Below, one piece after another: positions 31,341-47,173 of a stretch of 64,000 nucleotides of DNA. A program made the translations under genes and the position numbers. How positions within the stretch are numbered: position 1 is the first letter of the stretch; every line of letters begins with the position of its first letter. This DNA comes from Allosphingosinicella sp. (GTDB lineage: Bacteria; Pseudomonadota; Alphaproteobacteria; Sphingomonadales; Sphingomonadaceae), in assembly GCA_036491055.1 (NCBI GenBank), contig DASXCT010000016.1, positions 982-64,981 of the forward strand. Reading direction: 5' to 3'. Below the pieces are notes generated by a model. The model searched no databases and had not been told where the DNA came from. It was given only the letters and a program-made list of their open reading frames with translations.

Positions 31341-31693
31341 GGGGGTTGCGAAGACGATTCATTCGATGTGGCGCCGGCATGTCCGGAGCGCCGGCGCGTT
31401 TTTGTCGGCGCGGTCACGGGACGCGCCCGCATCGGATTCCTGGCTTTGCCGGCTCCGAGTGAAGGGCGGATTTGCCGGCGCATCCGGTCGCGCTCCAACC
31501 GAAAGCTGGATCGGTGTTCGAACCTCATGTTCCAGTATCGCATAATAGTTGATCCACATCTCTCCGGGGCGGGGAGCTCGTAGAGCCCGCCGACCCTCCT
31601 TCTCGATTCCAGGCGCTTTTTCCCCTCCACCGCGCTGCGCGCGGTCCCCCTCCCCACGGCGTTCGCCGTGGGGAGAACAAACGTTAGTCTTCC

Positions 31694-32152
31694 ATGGTCG
31701 CAGATTCAGGCTTGCGCGATTTGTGCGTATATCGCATATACCGACTCATGCACATGGAAGTGGATCATTTGGCGGGCGTTCGCGCCGGGATGGCGTTCCG
31801 CGTCTGTTTCGGCGGGTACAGCTTGCACAGGCTGAGGCGGCTGCCGCTGCCGCGCGGCTTGCTGCTGGTGGCGGAGATCCAACGGGCGGTTTGCGATCAT
31901 TATGGGTTGCCGCTGAGGGCGATGACGGTGGCGGGGCGGGCGCGGGAGATGGCGTGGCCGCGGCAGGTGGCGATGTTCCTCTGCCGGGAGCTGACCGGGC
32001 GATCCTTGCCCGACATCGGGCGGCGCTTCGGTGGGCGGGACCATACGACCGTGCTCCATGCTTTGCGCGCCGTCGAGAAAAGGCGGCGGGGCGATGCGGA
32101 GCTCGACCGGGATTTGCGGCTGCTCGCGGCGCGGCTGGAGGGGCGGCGGTGA
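31694..32152 (+). CDS. Stand-alone DnaA C-terminal (domain IV) HTH protein; start uncertain
   Basis: IQRAVCDHYGL..RQVAMFLCRELTGRSLPDIGRRFGGRDHTTVLHA. Confidence 0.9.
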   Translation: MVADSGLRDLCVYRIYRLMHMEVDHLAGVRAGMAFRVCFGGYSLHRLRRLPLPRGLLLVAEIQRAVCDHYGLPLRAMTVAGRAREMAWPRQVAMFLCRELTGRSLPDIGRRFGGRDHTTVLHALRAVEKRRRGDAELDRDLRLLAARLEGRR

Positions 32153-32343
32153 CGGCGACGGGGCTCGACACGCTGCGCAGCGGGCTGAGGAAGGTTCATG
32201 CGGCGGGGGCGCTCGGCTGCGTCCGCGTCGAGCATTGGGCGCGGACGCATGGGCGGTCGCACGAGGAGATCGAGGGGCTGATCGCCGAGATCCGGCTCGA
32301 GGACGCGCTGCGGGTGCGGCCGGAGGCGGAGGTTGAGGAATGA
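32149..32343 (+). CDS. Small hypothetical phage protein
   Basis: GTGA overlap with upstream stop and ATGA overlap downstream (translational coupling). Confidence 0.55.
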   Translation: MTATGLDTLRSGLRKVHAAGALGCVRVEHWARTHGRSHEEIEGLIAEIRLEDALRVRPEAEVEE

Positions 32344-32690
32344 GGGGGGATTCGGGGGGTGCATGTCGGATCGATCCGGCGGGAAAAGTGGGCTCGGCGG
32401 TGCCGCGCGCCGGCCTCTGGCCGGCACCCCCACCCCTTCCCCTCCCCACAAGGGGGAGGGGTTTGGAAAGTTGGAATCACGCGTCTGCCAATTCCGCGAT
32501 CTATGTCCACGGCGGCGGCGCTTGTCCGGTCGATCCCGACTCCGCTGTCCGCGTCACCTTTCGAAATGGGGTGAGCGCGCGTCATGCCTCCCCGGCGCGG
32601 CAGCTTCATTGGGGGCATCGGGGGCGGGACGATGTGTGGGACATCGTGGCTTATGAGAGTCTCGCCGGCGCGGGGCGGGGGCGGCGATGA
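32340..32690 (+). CDS. Hypothetical phage protein carrying an in-frame palindromic repeat
   Basis: HGGGACPVDPDSAVRVTFRNG..W.H..WDIVAY motif recalled from small phage proteins; ATGA overlaps at both ends. Confidence 0.6.
   Translation: MRGDSGGACRIDPAGKVGSAVPRAGLWPAPPPLPLPTRGRGLESWNHASANSAIYVHGGGACPVDPDSAVRVTFRNGVSARHASPARQLHWGHRGRDDVWDIVAYESLAGAGRGRR
32425..32461. repeat. REP-like element family C inside a coding region
   Basis: caccccttcccctccccacaagggggagggg. Confidence 0.65.
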
Positions 32691-33652
32691 GCTTGGCGGG
32701 GGGGTATGTCCGCGTCCATCGCAGCCTGATCGGGCATCCGGCGTTTCGCAACGACGCGGAAGCGATGGCGTTCGCCTGGCTGGTCTGCCGCGCGGCCTGG
32801 CAGCCGGTGGAGCTTCGCTACAAGGGGCGGCTGGTGCGGCTGGGGCGGGGGCAGCTTGCGCTGTCGGTGCGCGATTTCGCCGCCGCCATGGACCGCGACA
32901 AGGGCTGGGCCGAGAGGCTGCTTCGGCGACTCCGCGCGCGGGCCATGGTCGAGACGGAGAAGGGGGCCGGCTCGCTCATCATAAGCATCTGCAATTACGG
33001 GCGATTCCAGGCGGATGAGGCGGCGGCCAAGGCGCCGCGCAAGACGGCGGCCAAGACGGCGGCGGGACGCGGGCGCGACACGGAACAAGGAATCGAAGAA
33101 GGGGAAGAGATTCCCCCTCCGCCCCCGGCGAAGGGGCCGGCGCGGGCTTCGGGCAAGCGGGCCCTTCCGGCCGACTGGCAATTGCCGGCGGTCGAGAGCC
33201 TGACCGACAAGGCGCGCGCCTGCGCCGCCTTGTGGTCGCGGGCGAGCTATGAGGCGGTGGGGGAGGCCTTCGTCTGCTATTGGCGGCGGACCGGGCGGCG
33301 CAATGTCGACTGGCGGCTGACCTTCTGCGGCTGGGTGCTGCGCGAGCATGAAAAGGTGATGCGGAGCGAGCGCTTCGGTGCCGCGCCGCCCGCCGCCGCC
33401 GCCGCGCCGCGGGCGATGGACGCGGAAGAGCGCGCGTCGCTCGCCGCCCTCCACCAGGCGCGCGAGACCATGGCATTCGACGATTGGCACAGGCTGCGCC
33501 AGGCGCATTTTCGGCGCTGGCCGGGCGACGCGGTGCGGCGCGACGCGGGCGGGCGCGCGCGGGCGCTTGCCGACGCGCTGCCGCCGGCGCTGCGGCGCAA
33601 GCGGGCCGGCGGGGCATCCAAAGACGGGCAATCGACGGGGCAGGAGGACTGA
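32687..33652 (+). CDS. Phage replication initiator (lambda O-like / replisome organiser)
   Basis: GGYVRVHRSLIGHP..RGQLALSVRDFA..IISICNYGRFQ N-terminal domain; F..YW..NVDWRLTF C-terminal motif. Confidence 0.75.
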   Translation: MSLAGGYVRVHRSLIGHPAFRNDAEAMAFAWLVCRAAWQPVELRYKGRLVRLGRGQLALSVRDFAAAMDRDKGWAERLLRRLRARAMVETEKGAGSLIISICNYGRFQADEAAAKAPRKTAAKTAAGRGRDTEQGIEEGEEIPPPPPAKGPARASGKRALPADWQLPAVESLTDKARACAALWSRASYEAVGEAFVCYWRRTGRRNVDWRLTFCGWVLREHEKVMRSERFGAAPPAAAAAPRAMDAEERASLAALHQARETMAFDDWHRLRQAHFRRWPGDAVRRDAGGRARALADALPPALRRKRAGGASKDGQSTGQED

Positions 33653-33656
33653 AGAC

Positions 33657-34256
33657 GTGGCGAAACGGACCAAGCGCAAGGTCAAGACGGCGACGCAGCT
33701 CCAGGCGGAGGCCGAGCAGAGGCTGCGCATCCGCGCAGTCGATTCCGGCATTCCCGAGCATCGCGTCGCCGGCGAGCGCATCCGCGATTATGCGCCCGAC
33801 CAGGTGATCGATTTGAGCGGCGAGCTCGGCGGCGGGCGCAACCGGCAATATCAGGTGCTGCGATTGCTCTATCCGACGGTGGTCGACCGCTGGCTGGCCG
33901 AGGGCGGGCCGGGCTTCGAGGAGCCGCAGCGGCGCGCGATCGAGCATTGCCGGGCGCTGTGGACCCGGCTCGGCACGCAGGGGCGGCTGACCGCGCGCTG
34001 GGACGGCGTCGGCGGCGGCCGCGGCGACCGCAACCGCGTGCTCGAGCAGGCCGAGGCCCATGCCGAGATCAGGGGCTATGAGGCGCGGCTGGGCATGCCC
34101 TGGGTGTGGGAGGTGTTCGAGCTGGTCGTCCGCCACGACGAGCCCGCCGGCGCCGCCGCGAGCAAGCTCGCCAGCAACAGCGCCCAGCGGCAGGCGCACG
34201 CCAAGGCCTGCGTGGGGTTCGTGGCGAGCGCGATCGCGATGTGGCGGGGCTATTAG
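33657..34256 (+). CDS. DUF6456-like protein, putative late-gene regulator/antiterminator
   Basis: Position between replication and packaging genes; TVVDRW, LTARW, VFELVVRHDEP..A C-terminal helical motif; family assignment from memory. Confidence 0.6.
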   Translation: MAKRTKRKVKTATQLQAEAEQRLRIRAVDSGIPEHRVAGERIRDYAPDQVIDLSGELGGGRNRQYQVLRLLYPTVVDRWLAEGGPGFEEPQRRAIEHCRALWTRLGTQGRLTARWDGVGGGRGDRNRVLEQAEAHAEIRGYEARLGMPWVWEVFELVVRHDEPAGAAASKLASNSAQRQAHAKACVGFVASAIAMWRGY

Positions 34257-34317
34257 GGCAGATTGGCAAGTACTTGCCAATCGTCATTGGAATTGGTTCT
34301 CCCGATGCTGGGAGCGG

Positions 34318-35463
34318 CTAGGCCGGCTCGGCGGAGATTCCCGCTTCCGGAACAGGCTCGGCCGGCGTTGGCGCAGGCACATTTTCGATAAAGAGGGCTG
34401 CGAGCGGATCATTGATGTAATAATTGCTTCGGCCCGCCCGGTGCTTGGACAACAGCCCCCCGGCGGTGAGCTGGTCAAGGTAGCGGGCGGCCGTCTGCCG
34501 GCTGATGTCCAGTTCCCGCTGCAGGAATTCGATGCGGGTGTAAGGGAATCGGAAGAGGGTGTTGAGCAGATCCTGGGAATAGATCTTCTTGTGGTTCGTG
34601 CGCAGATTGTTCTTATAGTCCCGCATCAGCTCCTTGATGTCGCCGATGAGGCGCAGCGTGTCGATGGAGGTGCTGGTGACGGCCTGGAGCATGTACAGGA
34701 TCCAGCTCTCCCAGTCTCCGGTCTCCCGCACCGCCTGAAGCAGCCGGTAATATTCGCCCTTGTTCGCGGTGATGTAGCGGCTGAGATAGAGGATCGGAAT
34801 CTCTAGCAGCTTCTCGCGCACGAGATAGAGGACGTTGATGATGCGTCCGATCCGACCGTTGCCGTCGGGGAACGGGTGAATGCTCTCGAACTGGTGGTGA
34901 ATGACGGCCATCTTGACGAGGGGATCGAGGTCGCAAAGCGCATCGTCGTTGATGAACCGCTCCAATTTCCCCATCAGGTCCTGGATCGCGTTGGCGTCCT
35001 GCGGCGGGATATAGACGAGCTTGCCGCTGGCTTCGTTCTTCAAGGCGGTTCCCGGCGTCGCGCGATATCCGCCCGTCGTCCGCTTCAGCACCTGGAACAT
35101 CCGGGTGATGGTGTTGTTGGTGAGCAGTCCCTCCTGAGCGCACAAGGCGTCGTGGCCGACCTGGAGCGCGTCCCGGTAAAGCGCCACTTCCTTGGCGGCC
35201 GGCGAGGCGGGGTTTTCGGGGAACAGGCTGACCTGGAACACCTCATCCTGCGTCGTGACGATATTCTCGATCTCCGAGCTCGCCTTCGCTTCCTGGAGGG
35301 CGAGCGTGTCGATGAGGATGCCTTGGTTGGGGATGCCGCCGGCACGGCCCTTCAACTCGGCGAGGTGACGGTGCGCGCGCGCGGCGGCGCGCAGCACGGA
35401 AGGGTTTTCGAGCGCCGCGTTCGGCGGGAGCTCAGGGATCGTATAAGTCGGCTTGAGAGTCAT
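34318..35463 (-). CDS. Fic family protein with N-terminal Fic_N region and C-terminal HTH
   Basis: EAKASSEIEN inhibitory-type motif; HQFESIHPFPDGNGRIGR; SRQTAARYL. Confidence 0.92.
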   Translation of the reverse strand: MTLKPTYTIPELPPNAALENPSVLRAAARAHRHLAELKGRAGGIPNQGILIDTLALQEAKASSEIENIVTTQDEVFQVSLFPENPASPAAKEVALYRDALQVGHDALCAQEGLLTNNTITRMFQVLKRTTGGYRATPGTALKNEASGKLVYIPPQDANAIQDLMGKLERFINDDALCDLDPLVKMAVIHHQFESIHPFPDGNGRIGRIINVLYLVREKLLEIPILYLSRYITANKGEYYRLLQAVRETGDWESWILYMLQAVTSTSIDTLRLIGDIKELMRDYKNNLRTNHKKIYSQDLLNTLFRFPYTRIEFLQRELDISRQTAARYLDQLTAGGLLSKHRAGRSNYYINDPLAALFIENVPAPTPAEPVPEAGISAEPA

Positions 35464-35471
35464 TGCGGCTC

Positions 35472-35500
35472 ATGTTCGCGGAACTGGTTTTTGCGAACAT
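35472..35500. promoter_or_regulatory. Inverted repeat ATGTTCGC-N13-GCGAACAT just upstream of the Fic gene
   Basis: Perfect 8-bp arms 9 bp from the start codon. Confidence 0.45.
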
Positions 35501-35660
35501 ATCATGCATGACGTGTTACAAAAAGTGAAAAATGTTAACACGTCTGGCCGCATATGCTATGCAGGGTGACGCATCTCGAGACCGACTCTCGCAAGCCGTC
35601 ATGCTCGCCCTCGTCGAAAGCTTGCGCTACGCTCCGCTAGCACACAGGGGGAATAGACGC

Positions 35661-36602
35661 ATGAAATCATGGATTTTCGCGCTCGCGGCGGTCGCCGCGT
35701 GGGGATCGGCCGCTTCGGCGCGGACTGGGGCGGCGCCGGCGGTCGCCTATCGGCCGCTGGGGGTGGACGATCTCGGCATCCAGTTCGTCGACGACGGCTC
35801 GGTCCGGAAGGACGGGACGAGCCGGGATTTTTCGATGCTGGTGGTGTTCGCGCACCCGATAGCCGACGATAACGGGGCCGAATTTCTCTATGCGACGCTC
35901 CGGTCGCGGGTCGATTGCGCCGCCGGGACCGAGCAGGACCTCTTCGCAATCTTCCACGCGAAGGACGGCACCGACCAAAGGCCGACCGTCCACCATCCGG
36001 CCGCTTCCCTCCAGCCCGGATCGGTGATGGCGGACGCCGCGGATTATGTGTGCACGGGGAGGCGCAAGGCCGCCGCCGCGGAGGGGCGGGCGATGAGCGA
36101 GGCGGAGGCGGTGCGCGTCGCGACGGGCGCCTTCGCGGTTTCGGCCCCGGCGGCCGGCGCGTCCCAACCCGTCTATCGGTTGCTGGGCGTGACCGATGAG
36201 GATGCCGAGTTTCTCGACCAGGGCTCGATCGCGAAGGACGGAGCGCTCCGGGACTACCGGCTGCTGGTGGTGTGGGCGACGCCCAAGCTCGGGAGCGACG
36301 GCAGGACCGAGCATCCCTTTGCCAAATACCAGGCCCGGATCGACTGCGCCGCGTGGATGTCGAGCCTGCTTTCCATCACCATCTACAGCAGGAGCGGCCC
36401 GGAAAAGCCGATCATCCTTGGCCGGGGCCCGGATCGTCTTGAGCCGGGCTCGGTCGCAGAGACCGGCGCCGACTATCTCTGCAAGGGTAAATTGGCTGCG
36501 CAGATCGCGGGCGCGCCCCTGATCACGGTGGAGGAAGCGGTCCGCTCCGCGACCATGCTTTTCGCGGGACGCAAGGACCGGCGCGGCGCGGGAGGACAGT
36601 GA
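35661..36602 (+). CDS. Exported protein with two tandem about 130-aa surface-adhesin-E-like domains
   Basis: Signal peptide; each domain YR.LG..F.D.GS..DG..R..R.DCAA..PGSV..ADY.C.G. Confidence 0.75.
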   Translation: MKSWIFALAAVAAWGSAASARTGAAPAVAYRPLGVDDLGIQFVDDGSVRKDGTSRDFSMLVVFAHPIADDNGAEFLYATLRSRVDCAAGTEQDLFAIFHAKDGTDQRPTVHHPAASLQPGSVMADAADYVCTGRRKAAAAEGRAMSEAEAVRVATGAFAVSAPAAGASQPVYRLLGVTDEDAEFLDQGSIAKDGALRDYRLLVVWATPKLGSDGRTEHPFAKYQARIDCAAWMSSLLSITIYSRSGPEKPIILGRGPDRLEPGSVAETGADYLCKGKLAAQIAGAPLITVEEAVRSATMLFAGRKDRRGAGGQ

Positions 36603-36705
36603 GCGGCGCGGGGGCTGCGCCGGCTCCGGCGTTTCGCCGTCGACGCGATGCTCGCGCTCTTCGCCGACTTGCGCTAGGCTTCATCGCAAAACGGGGGGCA
36701 GGCGC

Positions 36706-38064
36706 ATGAAAGCGTGGTTTTTGGCGTTCATGGTGTTGGGGGCTTCGGCGGCTGCTGCTGCGGCGCAGTCGAGCGCCTTGCCGGAGGCGCGCTATCGGTT
36801 GATGGGCTACAGGGGCGATGAGGTTCAGTTCCTCGACGAGGGATCCGTCGACACGGACGGGACCAGGCGGGACTTTTCCTCCCTGACGGTGGACTCGGCG
36901 CCCCGGGCCGGCCCGCACGGCCGGCCGGAAGACAGCTATGGCGTGATTCGAAGCCGGATCGATTGCGCCGCGTGGACGGTGCAGCCGCTCTCCGCGCGGG
37001 TCCATTGGCAGAGCGGCCTGGGCGAACGCGTGGCCGCCAATCGAGCGCCCGTGGCCATCCCGGTGAATTCGTTCGCGGAGCTTTTCGCCGATTTTCTCTG
37101 CAAGGGCCGGACGGATTGGCTGATCAGGCGGTCGCATCTGGTCCGCGAAGCGGATGCGGTTCGCTCCGCGCGGCGCTTTTTCTCCGTCCCGACGGCGACG
37201 GACGCGTCGGGAGATTCGCGCTACCGCCTGCTGGATCTCGAGGACGCCGACGCCCAGCTCATCGACGAAAAGTCCATCAAGGAAGACGGCCCGCGCCGGA
37301 AATTCTCGCTGCTGATCATTTGGCCTCAACCCCGGTCCGGGGGAGGGGAAAGCGAGCCCGCCTCTCTCCACGACGAAATCCCGATGCGGGTCGATTGCGC
37401 CGCATGGACGATGCAGACCCTCTCGGGGAGGCCGAATGCGGGAAGCGGCACCGGAACGCCGCTTGTTCATGCCATCCTGCCGGGCTCGGTCGCGGAGACG
37501 GCGGCCGATTATGTCTGCAAGGGCAAGCTGGACCCCGACATCTCGCCGGCGAACGCCGCGAACGAAGCGCAGGCGGTGCGCGGCGCGATGCGTTTCCTCG
37601 CCGTGACGGGTTGGGGAAGCGCGCCGCCGGATCCCGCCTACCGTCTCATCGCCGCGGACGGCGATGCGGCCAATTATCTCGACGAAAGCGCGATCGCGCG
37701 GGCCGGCGCGACCCGGGAATATTGGATTCTGGGGCTGCGGGCAAAGCCCGAACGCGACAGGTACGGCGCCGAACATCCCTATGCGAGGTACCAGCTCCGC
37801 ATCGATTGCGCCGCGTGGACTACGCAGGCGCTCAAGGTGATTCCCTATACGAAGCGCGGGCCGGACCAGCTTGTTTCGCTTGCCGCCGAGCCGCAGCGCA
37901 TCGACCCGGATTCGGCGACGGAGGCCACCGCCAATTTCCTGTGCAAGGGCGAACTCGATCCGGCGATCGCGGCGAGGCACCTGGTCTCGCAGGACGAAGC
38001 GGTGCGCGAGGCGCTGAGCAATTTCGTGGCGGCCGGCCGGCCGCGCGATGCGCGCGGGAGGTGA
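36706..38064 (+). CDS. Exported protein with three tandem surface-adhesin-E-like domains, paralog of the upstream gene
   Basis: Same repeat three times (RIDCAAW ... LCKG); similar signal peptide MKAWF vs MKSWI. Confidence 0.75.
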   Translation: MKAWFLAFMVLGASAAAAAAQSSALPEARYRLMGYRGDEVQFLDEGSVDTDGTRRDFSSLTVDSAPRAGPHGRPEDSYGVIRSRIDCAAWTVQPLSARVHWQSGLGERVAANRAPVAIPVNSFAELFADFLCKGRTDWLIRRSHLVREADAVRSARRFFSVPTATDASGDSRYRLLDLEDADAQLIDEKSIKEDGPRRKFSLLIIWPQPRSGGGESEPASLHDEIPMRVDCAAWTMQTLSGRPNAGSGTGTPLVHAILPGSVAETAADYVCKGKLDPDISPANAANEAQAVRGAMRFLAVTGWGSAPPDPAYRLIAADGDAANYLDESAIARAGATREYWILGLRAKPERDRYGAEHPYARYQLRIDCAAWTTQALKVIPYTKRGPDQLVSLAAEPQRIDPDSATEATANFLCKGELDPAIAARHLVSQDEAVREALSNFVAAGRPRDARGR

Positions 38065-38120: not shown

Positions 38121-38149
38121 GTTGACAACGTAATGCCGACCTGCTAGGA
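38121..38149 (+). promoter_or_regulatory. Putative sigma70 promoter for the late operon
   Basis: TTGACA-17 bp-TAGGAA preceded by GC, in the gap before the co-oriented late genes. Confidence 0.45.
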
Positions 38150-38422
38150 AGGTCATACTCGCTAGAGTTGCGCCTGACGGGCAGAGGGGAAATCCCCCGG
38201 GCAGCCGCGGCGCCGGCTCCGGCCTCTTTCATCCCTACGATGATCTTCCTATGCCGTGCCGCGCGTTCCTTCCCTGCGCGCGTGCGCGGTGCCGCCCGCA
38301 CCCCCGACGCACCTTCCGAACGCCAAGAGCGCTTGTCACCGCTGAGGCGAGGTTTGCGGGCGGCATAAAATCCCGGCCCCTGTCACGTCCGGCCGAAATC
38401 CAGCCAGCCCAGGAGAGTCCCG

Positions 38423-38617
38423 ATGAGCGACGACGGCCTCTGCGGCTTCGGCGAGCCGGCGTTGGCGCCCGCGCTCGCCGCGCCCGAGCCGGTCGGCATG
38501 GTCGACGGGCGTTCGATCGCCGGCTTCTGGATGCCTTATTGGGCATCGCGTTCCTATCCCATGGCTGCCCATCCCGTGCCGGGCCGCTGCATTCTCGGGC
38601 GGGGCTGTCGTGGATGA
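38423..38617 (+). CDS. Small hypothetical phage protein
   Basis: RBS AGGAG; overlaps next ORF. Confidence 0.4.
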   Translation: MSDDGLCGFGEPALAPALAAPEPVGMVDGRSIAGFWMPYWASRSYPMAAHPVPGRCILGRGCRG

Positions 38618-38813
38618 TCCGATCGCGCCCGATATCGAGGCCATCTACCGCATGGTCGCGCTCGCCTGCGCCGCCTTCGTCACCGACGAGGCGAAGGATC
38701 ATACCGCTGTGCTCGCCGTGGCGGACAGCTTCCTCGAATATATCGATCCTTTGATCGCGGCCGACCAGGGCGTGCGGTTTACGTGCGACAAGGCGGTGCA
38801 GCCGAAGAGGTGA
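38610..38813 (+). CDS. Small hypothetical phage protein
   Basis: Host-like codon usage, co-oriented with late operon. Confidence 0.5.
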   Translation: MDDPIAPDIEAIYRMVALACAAFVTDEAKDHTAVLAVADSFLEYIDPLIAADQGVRFTCDKAVQPKR

Positions 38814-38845
38814 GAGCGGAGAGGGGGCTTCGTGCGGGCCTCAGG

Positions 38846-38894
38846 CCCCCCTCCACCGCCGTTCCGGCGGTCCCCCTCCCCGTCCCGGGGAGGA
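38846..38894 (+). repeat. REP-like element family A (inside prophage)
   Basis: cccccctccaccgccgttccggcggtccccctccccgtcccggggagga. Confidence 0.85.
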
Positions 38895-38991
38895 TTTGAG
38901 CAGCCGTCTTGTCAGGTCGCGCGGGGCCTTTCGCTGAACCGCGCATTCGCCGCCGCCATTCCCGGCCCATGGCCAAACTTAGGAGAAGCAC

Positions 38992-40827
38992 ATGACCCTC
39001 AATCCCACCAATGCCGGCCTGTTCGTCGACCTCGCCAGCGTCTCGATCGACGCCGGGATCGATATGATCGAGCTCGAGGGCTATCGCGAGGCAGGCAAGG
39101 GGGCGGGGCGTTATTTCCGGTGGACCGACGATCTGCCGGCGCTGCCGGCGGTCGGCACCGGCGAGAATGCCTGGTGGGCGACCGATGCCGACGGCGGCAC
39201 TTGGTATCCCGACGAGACCCAGCTCAACCTCTATCATTTCGGCGCCTATTGGGACGTTGAGACCGCCACCAATCCCTGGACCGGGACCGACGATTATCCC
39301 GCCTTCCTCGCCTTCAAATCTTATTGCATCTGGGTGCGCAAGAGCGACGGCTTCGCCGCCGACTATCTGTGCCTGCCCAAGCTGAGCCTGCCGTTCGGCG
39401 CCGGCTATACGTCGGCGACCTGGGAGTTCAATTTCGGCACGCCCCATCTCGTCGGCGTCGGATCGGGCGGACGCAACGGCGGCTATCCGACCATCCTCGT
39501 CGCGGCGCCGGGCGTCGACGGCATCGCCACCGAAACCACCAATACGACCGGCAACACGACCCGCACCCCCGGCGTCGGCGCGACCGACGCCTTGTTCGAG
39601 CATATCCAGCTCCGCACCTTCGGCGACGGCGGCGGCACGACCGCGGACGGCTGGCGGATCCGCTGCCAGACGCGGCTGATCGAATGCTCCGCGCGCGATT
39701 TCATCCGTTACGGCGTCAACATCACCGGAACGATCGGCGGCGGCGGATCGGCGGAAGGCAATGACAATCTCTGCGAGATTATCGGCGGCACCTATAGCTA
39801 TAACGGCGCCGCCGGCATTTTCCTGGATGGCGGCGATTCCAACCAGAGCACGATCACCGGCCCCGTCGACGTCTCGTCGAACGGCGGGTGGGGCGTGTGG
39901 GACAGCTCGTTCCTCGGCAATCTGTGGTCGGGAACGCACACCAACGGCAATGGCGTCGCGACCTCCGGGCCGCTTTATGCCACCAACGTCAATGGCAATT
40001 GCTGCAATTATAGCGGCAACCGCTATTCGGTGCAGCCGGGCCAGGCGGCCGGCGCCTCGACCAATGCGCCGAGCGGCACGACCGCGGCCAACACATGGTG
40101 GCATTGGATCCAGGCCGGCGGCGTGCACGTCGAATATCCCACCTGGGTTTCGGGCATGACCTGGACCGAGGGGGGGCCGTTCTTCACAGATAATCTCAAT
40201 TCGACCTCCGTCTTCCTCCATTGCTATTCGGAGGAGCTTGGCGGCCCGTCGCGCTTCTCCAACCAGACGCTCATCATCGGCGGCCTCCATGCCGCGGGCG
40301 TCATCGGCGGGACCTTCATCCGCGCCGATCTCGGCAGTCTCAAGAATACGGGCGGCGGATTCTGGTCGATCCAGGACGATGGCACCGGCAACAATGTGTC
40401 ATCGATGATCGGTGGCGCCGCATTGAGCCGTGATTTCCGGACCTTCTCTTATGGGACGCTGCAGCCCTGGACCGAGCATTACAATACGAGCACCGGCAAC
40501 ATCCACTTTCTTTACTCGCATTTCGACGGTTGGTGCGCCTACACGATCACCGGGCCGAGCACGACCTACCAGTTCGGCCGCGGAGCGGGCGTGCCGCATC
40601 GGCTGCAGGTTCCCGAGATCTTCGTCGGCAGTACGTCCAACGCGCGGAGCATCAGCTCGGCCTCGGCGATGCCGTCGAGCGGGACCTATGGCGAGGGCGA
40701 TTTCGTGCACAATACGCTGCCGAGCGTCTCGTCCGGCAAGGTGCTGACCGGCTGGATCCGGCTGACCAGCGGGAGTGGCAACGTGCTCAATACCGATTGG
40801 GCGGCCTGCTACGCGACGACGAGCTGA
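38992..40827 (+). CDS. Tailspike / beta-helix receptor-binding-like protein
   Basis: N-terminal GYREAGKGAGRYF head-binding-type motif; Gly/Asn/Thr-rich beta-helix-like body; C-terminal PSSGTYGEGDFVHN..GWIRLTSG tailspike motif. Confidence 0.7.
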   Translation: MTLNPTNAGLFVDLASVSIDAGIDMIELEGYREAGKGAGRYFRWTDDLPALPAVGTGENAWWATDADGGTWYPDETQLNLYHFGAYWDVETATNPWTGTDDYPAFLAFKSYCIWVRKSDGFAADYLCLPKLSLPFGAGYTSATWEFNFGTPHLVGVGSGGRNGGYPTILVAAPGVDGIATETTNTTGNTTRTPGVGATDALFEHIQLRTFGDGGGTTADGWRIRCQTRLIECSARDFIRYGVNITGTIGGGGSAEGNDNLCEIIGGTYSYNGAAGIFLDGGDSNQSTITGPVDVSSNGGWGVWDSSFLGNLWSGTHTNGNGVATSGPLYATNVNGNCCNYSGNRYSVQPGQAAGASTNAPSGTTAANTWWHWIQAGGVHVEYPTWVSGMTWTEGGPFFTDNLNSTSVFLHCYSEELGGPSRFSNQTLIIGGLHAAGVIGGTFIRADLGSLKNTGGGFWSIQDDGTGNNVSSMIGGAALSRDFRTFSYGTLQPWTEHYNTSTGNIHFLYSHFDGWCAYTITGPSTTYQFGRGAGVPHRLQVPEIFVGSTSNARSISSASAMPSSGTYGEGDFVHNTLPSVSSGKVLTGWIRLTSGSGNVLNTDWAACYATTS

Positions 40828-40852
40828 GGAGTCGCCGCGGGCGGGGCTCAGG

Positions 40853-40901
40853 CCCCCCTCCACCATGCTCCGCATGGTCCCCCTCCCCGTTCCGGGGAGG
40901 A
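40853..40901 (+). repeat. REP-like element family A (inside prophage)
   Basis: cccccctccaccatgctccgcatggtccccctccccgttccggggagga. Confidence 0.85.
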
Positions 40902-40931
40902 TGAAGGCCGACCAGCCCGAAAGGGAGCCGG

Positions 40932-41219
40932 ATGACGAAGACCATGGAGGACGCGCCGGCAGCCGTGGGGCGGGCGCGTCCTGGGCGCAGGGCGGCGCGG
41001 GCGAAAGCCGCAGCGCCGGGGCTGCGGGCGGCGAAGGAGGCGATCGCGCTGGCGGCCGACGCGCTCGGGGGGCATGAACGGCTCGTCGAATGGGCGCGGG
41101 AGGACGCGAAGAACGAAAGCGTCTTCTGGTCGAGCATCTATCCCAAATTGATTCCGATCCAGCTTTCCGGCGACGGCGGGGGGGCGGTGGAACATGGGGT
41201 GACGGTGAAGTTCGTTTGA
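40932..41219 (+). CDS. Probable terminase small subunit
   Basis: Directly before TerL; AADALGG..L.EWA..FWSSIYPKLIP motif. Confidence 0.6.
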   Translation: MTKTMEDAPAAVGRARPGRRAARAKAAAPGLRAAKEAIALAADALGGHERLVEWAREDAKNESVFWSSIYPKLIPIQLSGDGGGAVEHGVTVKFV

Positions 41220-41269
41220 ATTCGGTTTTGGTGGGGGTCGGGGGTTGGGGATAGTTCTCAGACGCCGAA

Positions 41270-41350
41270 CCCCCTCACCATGTGCCGCCGCTAAGGTTCG
41301 TCTGGGGGACGAACCAGGCGGCACATCCTCTCCCCACTTGGGAGAGGGAG
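41270..41350. repeat. Nested-hairpin REP-like element family C between terS and terL
   Basis: tgtgccgcc..ggcggcaca, ggttcgtc..gacgaacc, cctctcccca..ggagagg stems. Confidence 0.7.
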
Positions 41351-41363
41351 TCTGGAGGCTCCC

Positions 41364-42632
41364 TTGCATGAGGTCGAGATTCCGGGCGCCTTTCGGGGGT
41401 TGTTCGAGGCGCATCGCTACAAGGCCTTTTACGGCGGGCGGGGATCGGCCAAGTCGCATAGCTTTGCGACGGCTTTGGTCATCCTGGCGGCCGCGCGGCC
41501 TTTGCGGATCGTTTGCGCGCGGGAGATCCAGAACAGCTTGCGCGATTCGGTCAAGCAGCTGATCGAGGACAAGATCGCGGCGCTCGGGCTCGACGCGCAT
41601 TTCGATTGCCAGAGCAAGGTGACCAGGGGCCGCAACGGCTCGCATTTTTCCTATATCGGCCTGTGGCGGAACCCGGACGCGATCAAGTCGATGGAGGGGG
41701 CCGATATCTTCTGGGGGGAGGAGGCTTCGGCTTTCTCCGAACGCTCGCTTCGGATCGTGCGGCCGACCATGCGCAAGCCGGGATCGGAATTGTGGTTCTC
41801 GTGGAACCCGGAGTTCGAGCACGATCCGGTCGACCGCTTCTTCCGCGGCGGGGCGCCGCCGCCCGACGCTTTGGTGCGCGAGGTGAGCTGGCGCGACAAT
41901 CCCTGGTTCGCCGGCACGCCGCTCCAGGCCGAGATGGACTATGATTATTCCGCCGATCCGGCGCGCGCCGCCCATGTCTGGGGCGGGTCCTATGTCAGCG
42001 CGGTCGACGGGGCTTATTATGCCGCGGCGCTCGGCGAGGCACGGGCGGCGGGGCGGATCGGCCAGGTCGCGCCCGATCCCCTGATGGCCAAGCGCGCCTT
42101 CTGGGACTTGGGGGTGAGCGATTCGACCTCGGTCTGGGTGGCGCAGTTCGTCGGGCGCGAGATCCGGGTCCTGGATTATTGCGAGGGGCAGGGGCAGCCG
42201 CTTTCTTATTATTGCGACTGGCTGCGGGCGCGCGGCCATGGGTCGGCGCTCTGCGTGCTTCCGCATGACGGGGCGCGGCGGGACAATGTGACCGCTCTGC
42301 GCTTCGAGGACCATCTGCGCGAGGCCGGCTTCGCGGTCGAGACCGTGCCCAACCAGGGCAAGGGCGCTGCGATGCGGCGGATCGAGGCGGCGCGGCGGCT
42401 GTTCCCGGCGATCTGGTTCCACGAGGAGACGTGTCGCGAAGGGCTGAAGGCTTTGGCGGCTTATGCCGAGAAGCGGGACGACAAGAGGAATGTGGGGCTG
42501 GGGCCGGACCATAATTGGGCCTCGCATGCGGCCGATGCCTTCGGGCTGATGTGCATCGCTTATGAGGCGCCGCGGGAGCGGCGGAAGGCGGTGGAGCGGG
42601 CGGATTTCGGGGCTGGGGGGTGGATGGGGTGA
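41364..42632 (+). CDS. terL: Terminase large subunit (PBSX-type)
   Basis: YGGRGSAKSH Walker A; IFWGEEA Walker B; FSWNP; WDLGVSDST and HNWASHAADAF nuclease motifs. Confidence 0.95.
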   Translation: MHEVEIPGAFRGLFEAHRYKAFYGGRGSAKSHSFATALVILAAARPLRIVCAREIQNSLRDSVKQLIEDKIAALGLDAHFDCQSKVTRGRNGSHFSYIGLWRNPDAIKSMEGADIFWGEEASAFSERSLRIVRPTMRKPGSELWFSWNPEFEHDPVDRFFRGGAPPPDALVREVSWRDNPWFAGTPLQAEMDYDYSADPARAAHVWGGSYVSAVDGAYYAAALGEARAAGRIGQVAPDPLMAKRAFWDLGVSDSTSVWVAQFVGREIRVLDYCEGQGQPLSYYCDWLRARGHGSALCVLPHDGARRDNVTALRFEDHLREAGFAVETVPNQGKGAAMRRIEAARRLFPAIWFHEETCREGLKALAAYAEKRDDKRNVGLGPDHNWASHAADAFGLMCIAYEAPRERRKAVERADFGAGGWMG

Positions 42633-42642
42633 CCTTCTTCAT

Positions 42643-42847
42643 TCTCCCTGCGATTTCGCGGGGAGGGGGACCATGCGAAGCATGGTGGAGGGGCCTTGGC
42701 ACGGCGCATGAAGGGGGCCCCTCCACCACCCTGCGGGTGGTCCCCCTCCCCTCAGAATCGAGGGGAGGATTTAAGGGCGCCCGCCTCCGCCACCCTGCGG
42801 GTGGTCCCCCTCCCCTCGGAATCGAGGGGAGGATTTAAGGGCGCCCC
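42643..42847. repeat. Cluster of three family A REP-like copies (one inverted, two tandem direct) between terL and portal
   Basis: 42643-42693 (-), 42718-42769 (+), 42785-42833 (+). Confidence 0.85.
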
Positions 42848-42872
42848 GCCTTTGAAATGATGGGAGATTGGG

Positions 42873-44948
42873 ATGGGTGAGATTGCTCCTGGCGACGGTT
42901 ACGACGCCGATGCCGACGACGCGGCCGAAACGCCCGACAAGATCCTTGCCGCGGCGCGGGAGGATTATCGGCGGGCGCGGGAATATTGGCAGGACAATCA
43001 GCGCGAGGCGCAGGCGGACCTGGAATTCGCGCGGCTGGGACGGCAATGGCCGGCAGCGGTCGAGGAGCAGCGGCGGCGCGAGCATCGGCCGTGCCTCACC
43101 TTCAACAAGATGCCCTCCTTCATCCGCCAGGTCGTCAACGATAGCCGGCAGAACAAGCCTTCGATCAAGGTCCACCCGCAGGATTCGGGCGCCGATCCGC
43201 AGGTCGCGACCATCTATGACGGGCTGATCCGCAACATCGAGGCGACCTCCGACGCCGACGTCGCCTACGACACCGCGATCGAGCATGCGGTGGGGCAGGG
43301 CTTCGGCTTCTGGCGGGTCAACACCGCTTATGCCTGCGACGACGCTTTCGACCAGGATATCGTGATCGAGCGGATCGCCAATCCGTTCACGGTGTACGGC
43401 GATCCGCGATCGACGGCGGCGGATTCGTCGGACTGGAACATCGCCTTCGTCATCACGACGATGCCGAAGGACGAGTTCGAGCGGCAGTACCCGGACGCCG
43501 AATGCACGAGCTGGGAGTTCGATTTCGCCGACTGCCCGGACTGGCTCGACGGCGACGACGTCGTCCTCGCCGAATATTGGACGCGGGAGAAGGCGGCGCA
43601 CGACATCGTCGCGCTTTCGGACGGATCGATCATCGCGCTCGAGGAATTGGAGGCCGATCCGCGCCAGTTCGAGGGCGTCGAGGTCGTCGGGCGGCCGCGT
43701 ACGGTCGAGACGTACAAGGTGACGCAGCGGCTGATGACCGGCGCCGAGATACTGAAGACGGTCGACTGGGCGGGCAAATATATCCCGATCGTCCCCGTTT
43801 ATGGCGACGAGGTGATCGACGAGCATGGCAAGCGCCATTTCCGGTCTTTGATCCGCGACGCCAAGTCGGCGCAGGAGATGCTCAATTACTGGCGGACGAC
43901 GACGACCGAGCTTGCCGCGCTCGCGCCCAAGGCGCCCTGGGTGGGCGAGCAGGGGGCGTTCGACGTCGATCCCAATTGGGACGTCGCGAACAGCGCGAGC
44001 CTTTCGAAGCTCGAATATCGCAAGGGCTCGCCGATGCCGCAGCGCCAGCCTTTCGCCGGCGTGCCGGCGGGGGCGCTGCAGGAGGCGCTGAACGCCAATG
44101 ACGACATGAAGGCGATCATCGGCATTTACGATGCGTCCTTGGGCGCGCGCAGCAACGAGACGTCGGGCAAGGCGATCATGGCGCGGCAGCGGGAAGGGGA
44201 CGTTTCGACCTTCCACTTCATCGACAATCTGTCGCGGGCGATCCGCCATTCGGGGCGGATCCTCCTCGACCTCATTCCCAAGGTCTATTCGACCCAGCGG
44301 ATGATCCGCGTGCTCGGCGACGATCTGGCGCCGGCCAATGCCCAGGTCGCGCCGACCGGGCAGGCGGTGACTCCGGTGGTCGGGCCGCCGCGGGCCGATC
44401 CCGCCAATCCGATGCAGCTGATGCCGCCGGCGGTGGTCGGGCATGTCTACGATCTCGCCGCGGGCAAATACGACCTCACCGTGTCGGCGGGGCCGAGCTA
44501 CACGTCGCGGCGCGAGGAGGCGAACGACCTCATGATGCAGATGATGCAGGCGGCGCCGCAGGTCATTCCTTTGATCGCCGACATCTGGGTCGAGCAGCAG
44601 GACATGCCGCTTGCCGACCAGCTCGCCGATCGGCTGCGGCTGATGTTGCCGCCCCAGGCGCAGCAGGGGCCGGGCGGGGCGGGGGGCGGTGTGCCGCCGC
44701 AGGTGGCGGCGCAGATGAGCCAGCAGCAGCAGGTCATCCAGCAGGGCGCCGCGAAGCTCCAGCAGCAGGCGCAGGAGAACCAGGCGATGCAATTGCGGAT
44801 CGCCCTGCTCGAGACCGAGCTCGCCAACCGCCAGAACGAGCAGGGCCTCAAGAGCCAGGAGCTGCAGGTCAAGAGCTACGACGCCGAGACGCGGCGGATC
44901 GAGGCGATGCGGCCGCAGGTGGTCGGGATGGGGGCGCAGGCGGGGTAG
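42873..44948 (+). CDS. Portal protein (P22 gp1-like)
   Basis: RPCLTFNKMPSFIRQVVNDSRQN, YIPIVPVYG, SLIRDAKSAQ, NETSGKAIMARQREG, GKYDLTVSAGPSYTSRREEA; Gln-rich C-terminal barrel. Confidence 0.93.
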   Translation: MGEIAPGDGYDADADDAAETPDKILAAAREDYRRAREYWQDNQREAQADLEFARLGRQWPAAVEEQRRREHRPCLTFNKMPSFIRQVVNDSRQNKPSIKVHPQDSGADPQVATIYDGLIRNIEATSDADVAYDTAIEHAVGQGFGFWRVNTAYACDDAFDQDIVIERIANPFTVYGDPRSTAADSSDWNIAFVITTMPKDEFERQYPDAECTSWEFDFADCPDWLDGDDVVLAEYWTREKAAHDIVALSDGSIIALEELEADPRQFEGVEVVGRPRTVETYKVTQRLMTGAEILKTVDWAGKYIPIVPVYGDEVIDEHGKRHFRSLIRDAKSAQEMLNYWRTTTTELAALAPKAPWVGEQGAFDVDPNWDVANSASLSKLEYRKGSPMPQRQPFAGVPAGALQEALNANDDMKAIIGIYDASLGARSNETSGKAIMARQREGDVSTFHFIDNLSRAIRHSGRILLDLIPKVYSTQRMIRVLGDDLAPANAQVAPTGQAVTPVVGPPRADPANPMQLMPPAVVGHVYDLAAGKYDLTVSAGPSYTSRREEANDLMMQMMQAAPQVIPLIADIWVEQQDMPLADQLADRLRLMLPPQAQQGPGGAGGGVPPQVAAQMSQQQQVIQQGAAKLQQQAQENQAMQLRIALLETELANRQNEQGLKSQELQVKSYDAETRRIEAMRPQVVGMGAQAG

Positions 44949-44992
44949 GGGTGGCGACCGGTGTCGCCGCATGTTGTAGCGTCTAAGAAGCG

Positions 44993-45211
44993 CTAGCGGT
45001 GGCCCCGCCCGAAGCTGGGCTGTGAATGCCTCACGCCGCTAGTGACAACGTCATAGCCGCATGGGTGGCAAACCAGGGTATTGGCCCGTCCCACCGGGAG
45101 GCTTTCATGCTTCATGATCGATTTCTTGCCGTGCTGATAGCAATGGGGACATATCCAATGGGGTGGCTCCGACGGCTCCACGCCTTCCTTCAAACGGTAG
45201 GCGACAGAGCC
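44993..45211 (-). pseudogene. 3' remnant of a zinc-ribbon hypothetical protein
   Basis: GSVAYRLK..EPPHWICPHCY..KKSIM..LVCHPC; recognisable homology stops at about 45212. Confidence 0.5.
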
Positions 45212-45213
45212 TT

Positions 45214-45435
45214 GCCTGGGATGCGCTAAACTCCGATCAGGATGCCGGGTCCATGGCCAGGACGTTCGCCCTGAATTATGAGGGGATGGCCAACAAAACA
45301 GACGATCCAAAGCAGCGGGCAGCGCTCGCGGACGTGCTCAGCACAATTCCCCTCGATCCTACCAAGTCCCCGCGGCGGCCCACTAGCCCGCCACCTGAAA
45401 TCCAGGCCTATCTCCGGCGACGAGCGGGCCGCTAA
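45214..45435 (+). pseudogene. 3' remnant paralogous to the C-terminus of the lysozyme-tipped ejection protein (61410..63578)
   Basis: AWDALNSDQDAGSMARTFALNYEGMANKTDDPKQRAAL vs AWAALHSNQSAGQMAAKVAMDYEGMANKTGDPEKRAAI; 35/58 identical over the last block. Confidence 0.85.
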
Positions 45436-45462
45436 ACCGACAGTCGGAGAGGGCCCAAAGAC

Positions 45463-45774
45463 TCAGTTGCGGTTCTTCCGGCATGGCAGCCAATAGAACA
45501 TCGACCTGGGTGCTTCGAATTCATGCGAGCCCCAGCACCAGCCCATCCGCTCCACGCGTTCGATTAGTCGGTCACGGCGCGCGCAGGTGCGTTTCTTGAC
45601 CGCAATGTCGTAGGTTCCGCTGCAGATCGGGTCCAGGACGGTAATCCGGCGGATGAGGCTTTCAAGCGGCTGCGTGCGCGGCGCTTTGTATTCCGAGATG
45701 CAGCATGCGCTCGCCGACGTCGTGATCAGTGTTGCCGCCAGGAACGCTGCCGCGATCGTTGTCGAAGGGCGCAT
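45463..45774 (-). CDS. Small exported Cys-rich protein, paralog of 63564..63914
   Basis: Signal peptide; ACCISE, TYD.AV.KRTCARRDRL, GWCWGS, YWLPCR shared. Confidence 0.8.
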   Translation of the reverse strand: MRPSTTIAAAFLAATLITTSASACCISEYKAPRTQPLESLIRRITVLDPICSGTYDIAVKKRTCARRDRLIERVERMGWCWGSHEFEAPRSMFYWLPCRKNRN

Positions 45775-45815
45775 GGACCGTCTCCCAGCCCATTCATACC
45801 GGAACGCGATTTTCG

Positions 45816-45830
45816 GAACAAGTGAAGAAC
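45816..45830. promoter_or_regulatory. Alphaproteobacterial LexA (SOS) box consensus GAAC-N7-GAAC
   Basis: GAACaagtgaaGAAC in the intergenic gap between divergent genes. Confidence 0.6.
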
Positions 45831-46058
45831 AGAGTGCTTACGCCAAATCGCTCATCCTAACCCAGGGTCGGATCCGGGCGAAGGGTCGTTCACCGCTTTC
45901 ATCCATCCTTCGATACGCCGTTTCGACAAGCTCAACAGCTACTCAGGATGAGCGGGCAGGGGGGCACGGCGAGATCATGAGTTTGCCGCCAACCCCTGCG
46001 GGGGAGCGGCTTTACCTGGCCCGTCGTGAGACGCGCCTTTTCCTGAAAGAGGAGCCCC

Positions 46059-46925
46059 ATGGAGAACGAGACCGCGACCAACCCAAGCGGCGGCGAGGAT
46101 ACGGATTTTTCCACCCTCGCCGGCGATGCGGGAGTCGAGACCGAGACGCTCGAACCGACCCTCGATGATTACGGCAATCCGGTCGAACCGGACGACAGCG
46201 AGGAAGTCGAGCAGGATGGGCAGAAATTCCGCGTGCCCAAGGCGCTCAAGGATTCGTTCCTGAGGCAGGCGGACTATACCCGCAAGACGCAGGAAGTGGC
46301 GGACATGCGCCGGGCCGTCGAGGCCGAGCGGCAGGTCCTCCACCAGGCCAGCGACGCGGAGATCGGGACGCTCGCCCAGGTGCGGGCGCTCGACCAGCAG
46401 CTTGGCTATTATAACCGCATCGACTGGGACCGCTGGGAGCAGCAGGATCCGTTCGAGGCCCAGAAGGGCTGGCGGCAGTTCCAGCAGCTCCAGCAGGCGC
46501 GGCAGCAGACCGCGGGACATTTTTCGCAGCTCGTACAGCACCGGAATTTCGTTGCGCAGCAGGACACTGCCAGGCGCATCGAGGAAGGCCGGGCAGTGCT
46601 CGCCCGCGACATCAAGGGATGGGGCCCCGAGCTGGCATCGGGCCTGCTCGAGACGGGCGCGAGGCAATACGGCCTGCACAGAGCGGAGATCGAGGAGGCT
46701 TTCACCGATCCCCGCCTGGTCAAGGTCCTGCACGACGCGCACCAATATCGCCTCATCCATGGCAAGCAGCAGCAGGCGCAGCGTCATCTCGCCGCGCAGC
46801 AGGCCGAACCAGCAGCCCGCCCCGCCGCCTCGCGCGCGCCCGGCCAGGGACTGGACGATCGGCTGAGCGCGGAGGAATGGGCGCGGCGCCGCGACGAGCA
46901 GGTGCGCAAGCGCCGGGCTCGATAA
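46059..46925 (+). CDS. Capsid scaffolding protein
   Basis: Acidic N-terminus, FLRQADYTRKTQEVA motif, helical Gln-rich body; lies between portal and coat. Confidence 0.85.
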   Translation: MENETATNPSGGEDTDFSTLAGDAGVETETLEPTLDDYGNPVEPDDSEEVEQDGQKFRVPKALKDSFLRQADYTRKTQEVADMRRAVEAERQVLHQASDAEIGTLAQVRALDQQLGYYNRIDWDRWEQQDPFEAQKGWRQFQQLQQARQQTAGHFSQLVQHRNFVAQQDTARRIEEGRAVLARDIKGWGPELASGLLETGARQYGLHRAEIEEAFTDPRLVKVLHDAHQYRLIHGKQQQAQRHLAAQQAEPAARPAASRAPGQGLDDRLSAEEWARRRDEQVRKRRAR

Positions 46926-47026
46926 CAGGCAGGACATCCGACCGTCGCGCCTCGACTCCTGCCCCTGGTGGGCAGGGGCTGAGGTGGGATGCCGGACCTG
47001 GTCCGGCGCGCGGCTTTGCCGCGCTA

Positions 47027-47074
47027 CCCCTCATCCGGCTCTTCGAGCCACCTTCTCCCACAAGGGGAGAAGGG
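47027..47074. repeat. REP-like element family C
   Basis: cccctcatccgg..gccaccttctcccacaaggggagaagg. Confidence 0.75.
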
Positions 47075-47173
47075 AGATTGAAGCCGAACGGGCCACGGAA
47101 CGTCCTTCCTTCCTTTCTTCAACCCACACCCGCGCCGTGAGGCGCCGGCCTTCCCACAGATGGATTTTTCACC

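Follow-up and report, generated by a model that had tools for sequence, protein, structure and literature searches.

A candidate late-gene regulator, remotely similar to DUF6456 proteins, in the early operon of a P22-like prophage

Introduction

Among the activators of gene transfer agents (GTAs), GafA of Rhodobacter capsulatus is composed of a DnaA-like N-terminus and a C-terminal part annotated as DUF6456. In Caulobacter crescentus this protein is split into GafY (also known as HdaB; CCNA_01111), which resembles DnaA domain IV, and GafZ (CCNA_01112), and such split gafY-gafZ pairs are common. In a 64-kb stretch of DNA from Allosphingosinicella sp. (contig DASXCT010000016.1), the whole of which is referred to here as the window, two genes of one short operon recall this arrangement: g1, encoding a small DnaA domain IV-like protein, and g3, encoding a protein of an unannotated family. 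The operon precedes the late operon of a P22-like prophage and so bears on how the GTA activators relate to ordinary phage late-gene control.

GafZ is an anti-terminator that works with NusA, NusG, and NusE; its binding element lies between the -35 and -10 elements, and a terminator is located after the first gene of the cluster. GafY binds domains 3 and 4 of RpoD as well as GafZ, requires IHF, and binds far upstream of its target promoter. HdaB is reportedly 32% identical to DnaA domain IV, lacks R399, and was first described in replication control, with later work ascribing the replication effects to GTA induction. One group has reported no similarity between GafZ and Q proteins, whereas another has described features shared with Q21. 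The premises on which a first-pass annotation of this DNA had drawn, namely the two-part GafA, its split into GafY and GafZ, and GafZ anti-termination, hold. To our knowledge, outside a few roseophages the GTA activators (GafA and GafYZ) have been found only as regulators domesticated by their hosts. The phage-borne GafA homologs of the roseophages have already been described (Fogg 2019).

Results and Discussion

Position of g3 and a conserved promoter block

The segment from 31694 to 34256 is best explained as a short early (replication) operon belonging to a P22-like prophage, the host being a soil bacterium of sphingomonad type. GC content at third codon positions (GC3) marks g1, g1b, g2, and g3 as a compact plus-strand operon and ranges from 0.82 to 0.87 in the frames listed in Table 1, as expected of real genes. 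A dead pseudogene remnant was ruled out by GC3 and by full-length conservation, which indicate that the genes have been maintained. The first-pass annotation had proposed that g3 closes the early operon and that a P22-like operon lies downstream, and both proposals stood: g3 is the last plus-strand gene before a convergent fic gene, its homologs are the last genes before the late promoter, genes for TerL, portal, scaffold, and coat follow, and related phages carry P22_portal.

Phage-type loci carrying a g3 homolog were found beyond the window in L005 (Mvi-Yong1342-1), L008, L009, L012, L013, and L015. In all phage-type loci the homolog is the last gene of the early operon, upstream of the terminase/portal module. 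A promoter block begins approximately 5 to 50 nt after the stop codon of the homolog in L008, L012, and L013, with a constant span of 53 to 54 nt, and consists of TTGACA, 17 nt, TAnGnn, approximately 22 nt, and G(T/G)TGCGCC. In the window this block is found 3.9 kb beyond g3, and the promoter that had been placed at 38121 in the first-pass annotation proved to be part of it. A simple sigma-70 scan of the 31- to 42-kb region called no promoter, and the block surfaced only through comparison of the loci. The leader behind it extends for approximately 265 nt to the first small open reading frame (ORF). In L008, approximately 1.1 kb after the late-promoter block (7547-8691) is devoid of a convincing ORF and represents either a very long leader or an unrecognized element.

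The right joint was placed by alignment: from 38078 on, the window matches sequence that in the g3-homolog loci begins at the stop codon of the homolog. Because of this alignment, the 3.8 kb separating g3 from the promoter block (34318..38064), which holds a SoFic gene and two Adhesin_E genes, is evidently an insertion. Since the block directly follows the g3 homologs in three relatives and the insertion displaced the copy in the window, g3 occupies, by synteny, the phage Q slot. The region between the Q gene and the late promoter is a known cargo hotspot in lambdoid phages. A perfect palindrome, GATTGGCAAGTACTTGCCAATC, at the left insertion joint is likely a bidirectional terminator or an operator.

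Remote relationship of g3 to DUF6456 proteins

The GTG start of g3 agrees with the N-termini of its homologs, of which approximately 110 close clusters were recovered, all of about 185 aa and all labeled hypothetical. An exhaustive profile search with the g3 family yielded 208 representatives at an E value of ≤1e-3, and when the broad alignment was used for a further round of homolog searching, nothing beyond the close family came back. No match to g3 was found in NCBIfam, PHROG, or PDB sequences, and tblastn searches of plasmids with g3, P0212, and RDJL gp38 (both introduced below) gave no match.

Three weak and separate lines of evidence, namely a Pfam bridge, profile-profile comparison, and predicted fold, agree in register on DUF6456. 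The bridge is the protein P0212, which was reached over its full length by the profile of the narrow g3 family alignment (A1) at an E value of 7e-17; by hhalign, A1 matched the P0212 clade (A8) at 99.9%. P0212 matched Pfam DUF6456 (PF20057) with 27.5 bits against a cutoff of 26.3, its residues 62 to 161 aligning with profile positions 22 to 120, and its relative P0264 scored 18.8 bits, below the cutoff, on the same DUF6456 columns. A search with P0212 itself retrieved three proteins only.

For the profile-profile comparison, nine phage GafA/DUF6456-like proteins were aligned (A9). Four are of the RDJL type and were also aligned alone (A7): RDJL Phi 1 gp38 and its relatives in RDJL Phi 2, RDJL6, and vB_DshS-R4C. 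RDJL Phi 1 gp38 was picked by its position beside the phage ctrA gene, where Fogg 2019 places a GafA homolog. The other five, ORFs from IMG/VR, were picked by a C-terminus of the form GLE..E...GW.ARS.K.VL. The comparison with GafZ and GafA therefore runs through phage homologs, not through the GafZ and GafA sequences themselves; C. crescentus gafZ, represented by a primer-derived exact 22-mer and a codon-degenerate 26-mer, gave no match in genome or metagenome contigs. The broad g3 family alignment (A2) matched A9 with an hhalign probability of 75.7% (P = 2.4e-5) over 119 columns, corresponding to g3 residues 66 to 195, and A8 matched A9 at 69.7% (P = 4.2e-5). Among the RDJL-type proteins, the GafA homolog of RDJL6 (L019, 524-1299) is apparently split, a 134-aa ORF comprising only the C-terminal domain being preceded by a separate 119-aa ORF. 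In RDJL Phi 1 and Phi 2 a single fused gene encodes approximately 310 aa, and the product is annotated as an ATPase in Phi 2 and RDJL6.

The AlphaFold model of g3 was confident (pLDDT, 88) and comprises an N-terminal helix, a beta-hairpin, and then five helices with a disordered Gly-rich loop. When this model was compared with predicted viral structures (BFVD) using Foldseek, a viral "DUF6456 domain-containing protein" ranked fourth (probability, 1.0; E value, 0.018; TM, 0.46). Weaker matches, with E values of 0.5 to 3, were to sigma-70 region 4 and to ECF sigma factors.

Several results weigh against this relationship and against the regulatory role that it would imply. Pfam searches with g3 returned nothing even at an E value of ≤10, DUF6456 included, and 80 of 81 diverse representatives of the family had no DUF6456 match, the remaining one, P0212, barely passing. 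The narrow alignment A1 matched A9 at a probability of only 3.9% (P = 0.011), and A2 matched the four RDJL-type proteins of A7 at 0.5% (P = 0.12); the members of A9 were assigned by position, by relation to gp38, or by the C-terminal motif. In the PDB, Foldseek found no match below an E value of 1 for either the full model or a core-domain model (residues 72 to 199), so that neither whole g3 nor its core matched a sigma-4, Q21, Q-lambda, or AlpA fold. The four loci described by the promoter pattern are also those from which it was drawn up. When the four leaders were folded as RNA, none of the structures proved conserved or unusually stable (z-scores, -1.1 to +0.15), and the GC-rich hairpins described below also occur in host DNA, raising the question of whether they are genomic repeats rather than terminators.

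It is likely, short of proven, that the g3 family is remotely homologous to the DUF6456/GafA-C/GafZ superfamily. Because g3 itself has no direct match, the DUF6456 label given to it in the first-pass annotation is retained only as a statement of remote homology; direct matches to DUF6456, and to a sigma-4 or Q fold among solved structures, were not found, whereas the remote links were.

g3 as a candidate late-gene regulator

From position and remote homology together, we judge it slightly more probable than even that g3 is the late-gene regulator of the phage. In the mechanism we propose, g3 would be a divergent member of the DUF6456 superfamily, alongside GafZ and the C-terminal part of GafA, and would act at the conserved promoter block, which lay directly behind g3 until insertion of the SoFic/adhesin cargo. 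On the analogy of GafZ and phage Q, RNA polymerase would take up g3 at the block or immediately past it. A candidate site for this loading, or for a pause, is the invariant G(T/G)TGCGCC, located approximately 10 to 20 nt downstream of the transcript start. The polymerase would then read through the long leader and past the GC-rich hairpins spaced along the late operon. Anti-termination is, by this analogy, the most likely mode of action, and plain promoter activation by g3 would be the fallback. What the sequences show directly is the gene identities, the synteny, the conserved promoter block, and the insertion; the binding of DNA or RNA polymerase, the anti-termination, and any partnership with g1 are steps that we infer. 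The product of g1 would be a true DnaA-box-type DNA binder from the same operon, serving either as a coactivator like GafY or in a function related to replication or host DnaA.

The tight and conserved gene-then-promoter arrangement speaks against g3 being an accessory protein of the early operon, in which case it would not be a transcription factor and the promoter behind it would mark an operon boundary controlled by other means. Such a role would fit the lack of a direct family or solved-fold match, the marginality of all DUF6456 links, and the fact that the function of most DUF6456 proteins is itself untested. However, the three weak links point independently to one family in one register, the stretch separating the replication module from the late module holds no other candidate for a regulator, and chromosomal copies of the family are divergent with an XRE repressor-type gene, as expected of a regulator. 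We regard an accessory role as improbable.

The chromosomal copies constitute a second context of the g3 family, a conserved sphingomonad locus in which the homolog is divergent from an XRE-type helix-turn-helix (HTH) gene of approximately 150 aa. No g1-like gene was found near these loci, nor was the promoter block. They are represented by L001 to L004, L006, and L007 (e.g., L001, 9416-10561), with 63% identity over 78% of g3, and their neighborhood is stable: CHASE2-EAL, DUF1153/response regulator/EAL, Flp pilins, dCTP deaminase, and DnaB. Judged by this arrangement, the XRE gene and g3 homolog look like a domesticated regulator pair. Among the phage-type loci, L005 is the genome PP496355.1, deposited as "Microcystis phage Mvi-Yong1342-1"; its TerL shares 59% identity, and it carries a g3 homolog and a DnaA-like gene as in the window element. 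The real host of L005 may be an alphaproteobacterium from the cyanobacterial culture.

The DnaA-like gene g1 and its relation to g3

The identification of g1 as a stand-alone DnaA C-terminal HTH gene, made in the first-pass annotation from the motif RDHTTVLHA, was borne out. g1 matched Pfam Bac_DnaA_C (PF08299) with 96.9 bits (E value, 7.2e-28; cutoff, 31.5), the C-terminus of TIGR00362 (DnaA) with 103.6 bits, and the solved domain IV of Escherichia coli DnaA (1J1V) with an E value of 3e-19. At most 152 aa long, g1 has Bac_DnaA_C as its single domain, with approximately 47% identity to E. coli DnaA domain IV as estimated by eye on the alignment. The true start of g1 may be located downstream of 31694, as relatives show no conservation of the first ~55 residues. 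Residues R399, P423, D433, H434, T435, and H439 of E. coli DnaA reportedly contact the DnaA box, and the equivalents of all six, along with RDHTTVLHA, are kept in the 1J1V alignment. Since these contact residues include R399, which HdaB lacks, g1 resembles a functional DnaA-box binder more than it does a diverged GafY. The position of g1b after the DnaA-like gene is kept in L008 (tblastn, 38% over 61 aa; E value, 4e-7), and g1b had no family match.

The first-pass annotation had suggested that g1 and g3 together switch on the late operon in the manner of GafY and GafZ. On that full analogy, g1 would bind upstream of the late promoter and recruit RNA polymerase, g3 would bind both g1 and the polymerase and anti-terminate, and both would be needed. 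GafY is itself DnaA domain IV-like and commonly occurs in a split pair, and g1-like and g3-like genes are found together in five of the seven phage loci with enough upstream DNA (the window, L005, L008, L012, and L013); these phages are, however, related to one another, so that the count is not independent evidence. L009 and L015, like all chromosomal copies, have a g3 homolog and no g1-like gene. The two genes are never adjacent or fused: they lie 1.5 kb apart in the window, with g1b and g2 between them, and 2.4 to 5.7 kb apart in the other four loci. The g1 HTH aligned in register with the N-terminus of the phage GafA homologs, if weakly (P = 0.006), yet g1 is much nearer to authentic DnaA than HdaB/GafY is, and no DnaA-box-like site was found near the late promoter. 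Part of the suggestion has thus fared better than the rest: g3 as the switch is favored by the Q slot, the promoter block, and the remote DUF6456 link, whereas a g1-g3 pair is less well supported, and the full two-protein mechanism seems to us possible but improbable.

A role of g1 in the replication module, as a protein that would bind DnaA boxes and not be the transcription partner of g3, is a serious possibility that we place somewhat below even, and it is at least as likely as the two-protein mechanism of the GafYZ type. All base-contact residues of DnaA domain IV are kept, and g1 lies two genes upstream of g2, a DnaD/O-like initiator that matches PHROG 35955, 2514, 1408, and 345 and, weakly, Pfam DnaT. 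In L008 and L013 the g1 homolog adjoins a DNA methylase gene in the replication region. An exact DnaA box, TGATCCACA, overlaps the likely early promoter at 31550, and an inverted box, TGATCCACT, follows at 31759; the former is the sole exact DnaA box in the 64 kb, and the two are the only close sites in the element. The count of DnaA boxes over the whole window is nevertheless at chance level (9 seen versus 7.7 expected), so that the two boxes serve as a lead only, and boxes mapped in related loci showed no pattern, again with counts at chance level. The original description of HdaB as acting on replication control would favor such a role, and the later attribution of its effects to GTA induction would not. 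Should g1 act in replication, several functions are conceivable: control of the early promoter from which it is itself expressed, marking or priming of the phage origin jointly with g2, and competition with, or titration of, host DnaA or HdaA.

Other features of the window

The window has a GC content of 63 to 74%, and its sequence was matched only in soil metagenome DNA runs and assemblies. To the right of g3 lie, in order, the convergent fic gene, the two Adhesin_E genes, a 540-nt gap, two small ORFs, the gene for a 611-aa protein, and terL (Table 1). The 611-aa protein showed no homology to the product of the first large late gene of L008. Genes left of g1 encode a phospholipase D (PLD)-domain protein, a patatin-like protein, a Fic/DOC protein, a TonB-dependent receptor, and a GH3 hydrolase. 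These are of host or defense type, with no integrase, repressor, or tRNA among them, and it is plausible, as the first-pass annotation had it, that the prophage element begins just before g1.

A family of GC-rich REP-like hairpins, CCCCTCCCC-loop-GGGGAGG, is present in 12 copies in the window, with none expected by chance. Within the element, copies follow g1b, the small late ORFs, and the 611-aa gene, and two more, 64 nt apart, lie between the TerL and portal genes. The hairpins may be genomic REP elements that came to colonize an old prophage, terminators for a processive factor to override, or both.

Further features were noted outside the early operon. A Fic/DOC protein at 22631-23688 matches the PADLOC candidate system PDC-S04 (E value, 5e-20), with a small partner upstream, and 26353-31340 encodes a 927-aa patatin-like protein and a 629-aa two-domain PLD protein, neither of which had a PADLOC match. 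This Fic/DOC-patatin-PLD stretch may be a defense or toxin island. The late proteins encoded at 50029-51207 and 52213-53028 are paralogous, and their C-terminal parts match PHROGs 26223 and 18498, which are of unknown function.

TABLE 1 Features of the g1-g3 operon and the adjoining late region, in window coordinates
Feature	Position	Strand	Description
REP-like hairpins	4872, 5584, 9065, 11601, 14651, 32439, 38873, 40880, 42743, 42807		Host and prophage intergenic regions
Exact DnaA box	31550..31558	+	TGATCCACA; AT-rich stretch 5' of g1
Hairpin	31650..31675	+	CTCCCCACGGCG TT CGCCGTGGGGAG; perfect 12-bp stem in the leader before g1; variant of the REP-like family
g1	31694..32152	+	Stand-alone DnaA domain IV HTH protein; 152 aa as longest ORF
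Second DnaA box	31759-31767	-	TGATCCACT; inverted, one mismatch
g1b	32149..32343	+	Small ORF of 64 aa, overlapping the g1 stop; GC3 frame
g2	32687..33652	+	Replication initiator/helicase-loader type; DnaD/O-like N-terminus, DnaT-like middle
g3	33657..34256	+	GTG start, 199 aa; unannotated family; candidate late-gene regulator, Q slot
Palindrome	34261..34282		GATTGGCAAGTACTTGCCAATC; perfect, 22 bp; between convergent g3 and SoFic at the left insertion joint; unique in window
SoFic-type Fic defense gene	34318-35463	-	Pfam; PADLOC SoFic, E value 2.9e-116
Adhesin_E repeat protein 1	35532-36602	+	Pfam
Adhesin_E repeat protein 2	36706-38064	+	Pfam; paralogous to protein 1
Late-promoter block	38122..38174	+	TTGACA, 17 nt, TAGGAA, ~22 nt, GTTGCGCC
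Late leader	38175..38991	+	Small ORFs 38423-38617 and 38610-38813; REP-like GC hairpin 38873-38893
Start of P22-like late operon	38992..48370	+	PHROGs; tblastn to related phages
First large late gene	from 38992	+	611-aa protein
95-aa ORF	40932-41219	+	Late operon
TerL	41364-42632	+	PHROGs
Portal	42873-44948	+	PHROGs
Scaffold	46059-46925	+	PHROGs
Coat	47174-48370	+	PHROGs; further virion proteins beyond

Implications

What appears to be new here is a divergent branch of the family that carries no annotation and that occupies the Q slot of P22-like prophages, followed by a conserved promoter block, together with a DnaA-like gene that is separate from g3 and more DnaA-like than GafY. A defense gene (SoFic) and adhesin genes have been inserted exactly between the putative late regulator and its promoter. 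If the proposed role of g3 is correct, the locus would offer a natural phage system for studying a GafZ-type mechanism, a candidate DNA site for loading, and a handle for annotating approximately 200 clusters of hypothetical proteins. If g3 is unrelated to transcription, the finding shrinks to an ordinary prophage early operon.

A broader idea, which we consider unlikely and offer as speculation, is that GafZ and the C-terminal part of GafA descend, through domestication, from a regulator that persists in phages as the g3 family. The g3 family would then be a DUF6456-type "Q" of alphaproteobacterial P22-like temperate phages, with TTGACA-N17-TAnGnn-N22-GTTGCGCC as its loading site, and the chromosomal XRE-paired copies would represent a second, independent domestication controlling a distant phage-derived locus.

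Comparison with known systems

Compared with GafZ and the C-terminal part of GafA, g3 is remotely similar across the domain (hhalign, 70 to 76% against the phage GafA/DUF6456-like proteins, with P0212 above the Pfam cutoff). Its model is all-helical in this part, with a predicted HTH-like helix pair at the end, like those regulators it is positioned for control of a long operon of phage-type head and packaging genes, and a DnaA domain IV-like gene, g1, belongs to the same operon as g3. It differs in being missed by the DUF6456 model and annotated nowhere, in its location in a P22-like prophage and not an RcGTA-type cluster, in having an extra N-terminal helix and beta-hairpin, and in not being adjacent to the DnaA-like gene.

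With GafY/HdaB, and equally with the DnaA-like genes that precede gafA in Hyphomicrobiales, g1 shares its form as a small stand-alone DnaA domain IV-type HTH protein encoded in the same operon as a DUF6456-related gene. In contrast to HdaB, whose features are taken from its description, g1 is far closer to DnaA and retains R399; it is separated from g3 by two genes and lies in a replication module. The roseophage GafA homologs (RDJL Phi 1 gp38 and those of RDJL Phi 2, RDJL6, and vB_DshS-R4C) are, like g3, phage-borne and probably of the same superfamily. They have a DnaA-like N-terminus fused to the C-terminal domain, and in their lytic siphophages they neighbor a ctrA-like gene instead of occupying a Q slot; direct profile comparison of the g3 family with these four alone was nonsignificant.

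From the lambdoid regulators (lambda Q, Q21/Q82, and P22 gp23), g3 differs in having no sequence or fold similarity to them by Pfam, PHROG, PDB sequence, or Foldseek comparison, and the pause site and terminator are here only candidates (the invariant GTGCGCC motif and the GC hairpins). In layout the likeness is close: g3 is the last gene of the early-right operon, the late promoter follows directly downstream (displaced in the window), a long leader precedes the late genes, and the late operon starts before the terminase genes. The same gene-then-promoter order is that of lambda Q and P22 gene 23.

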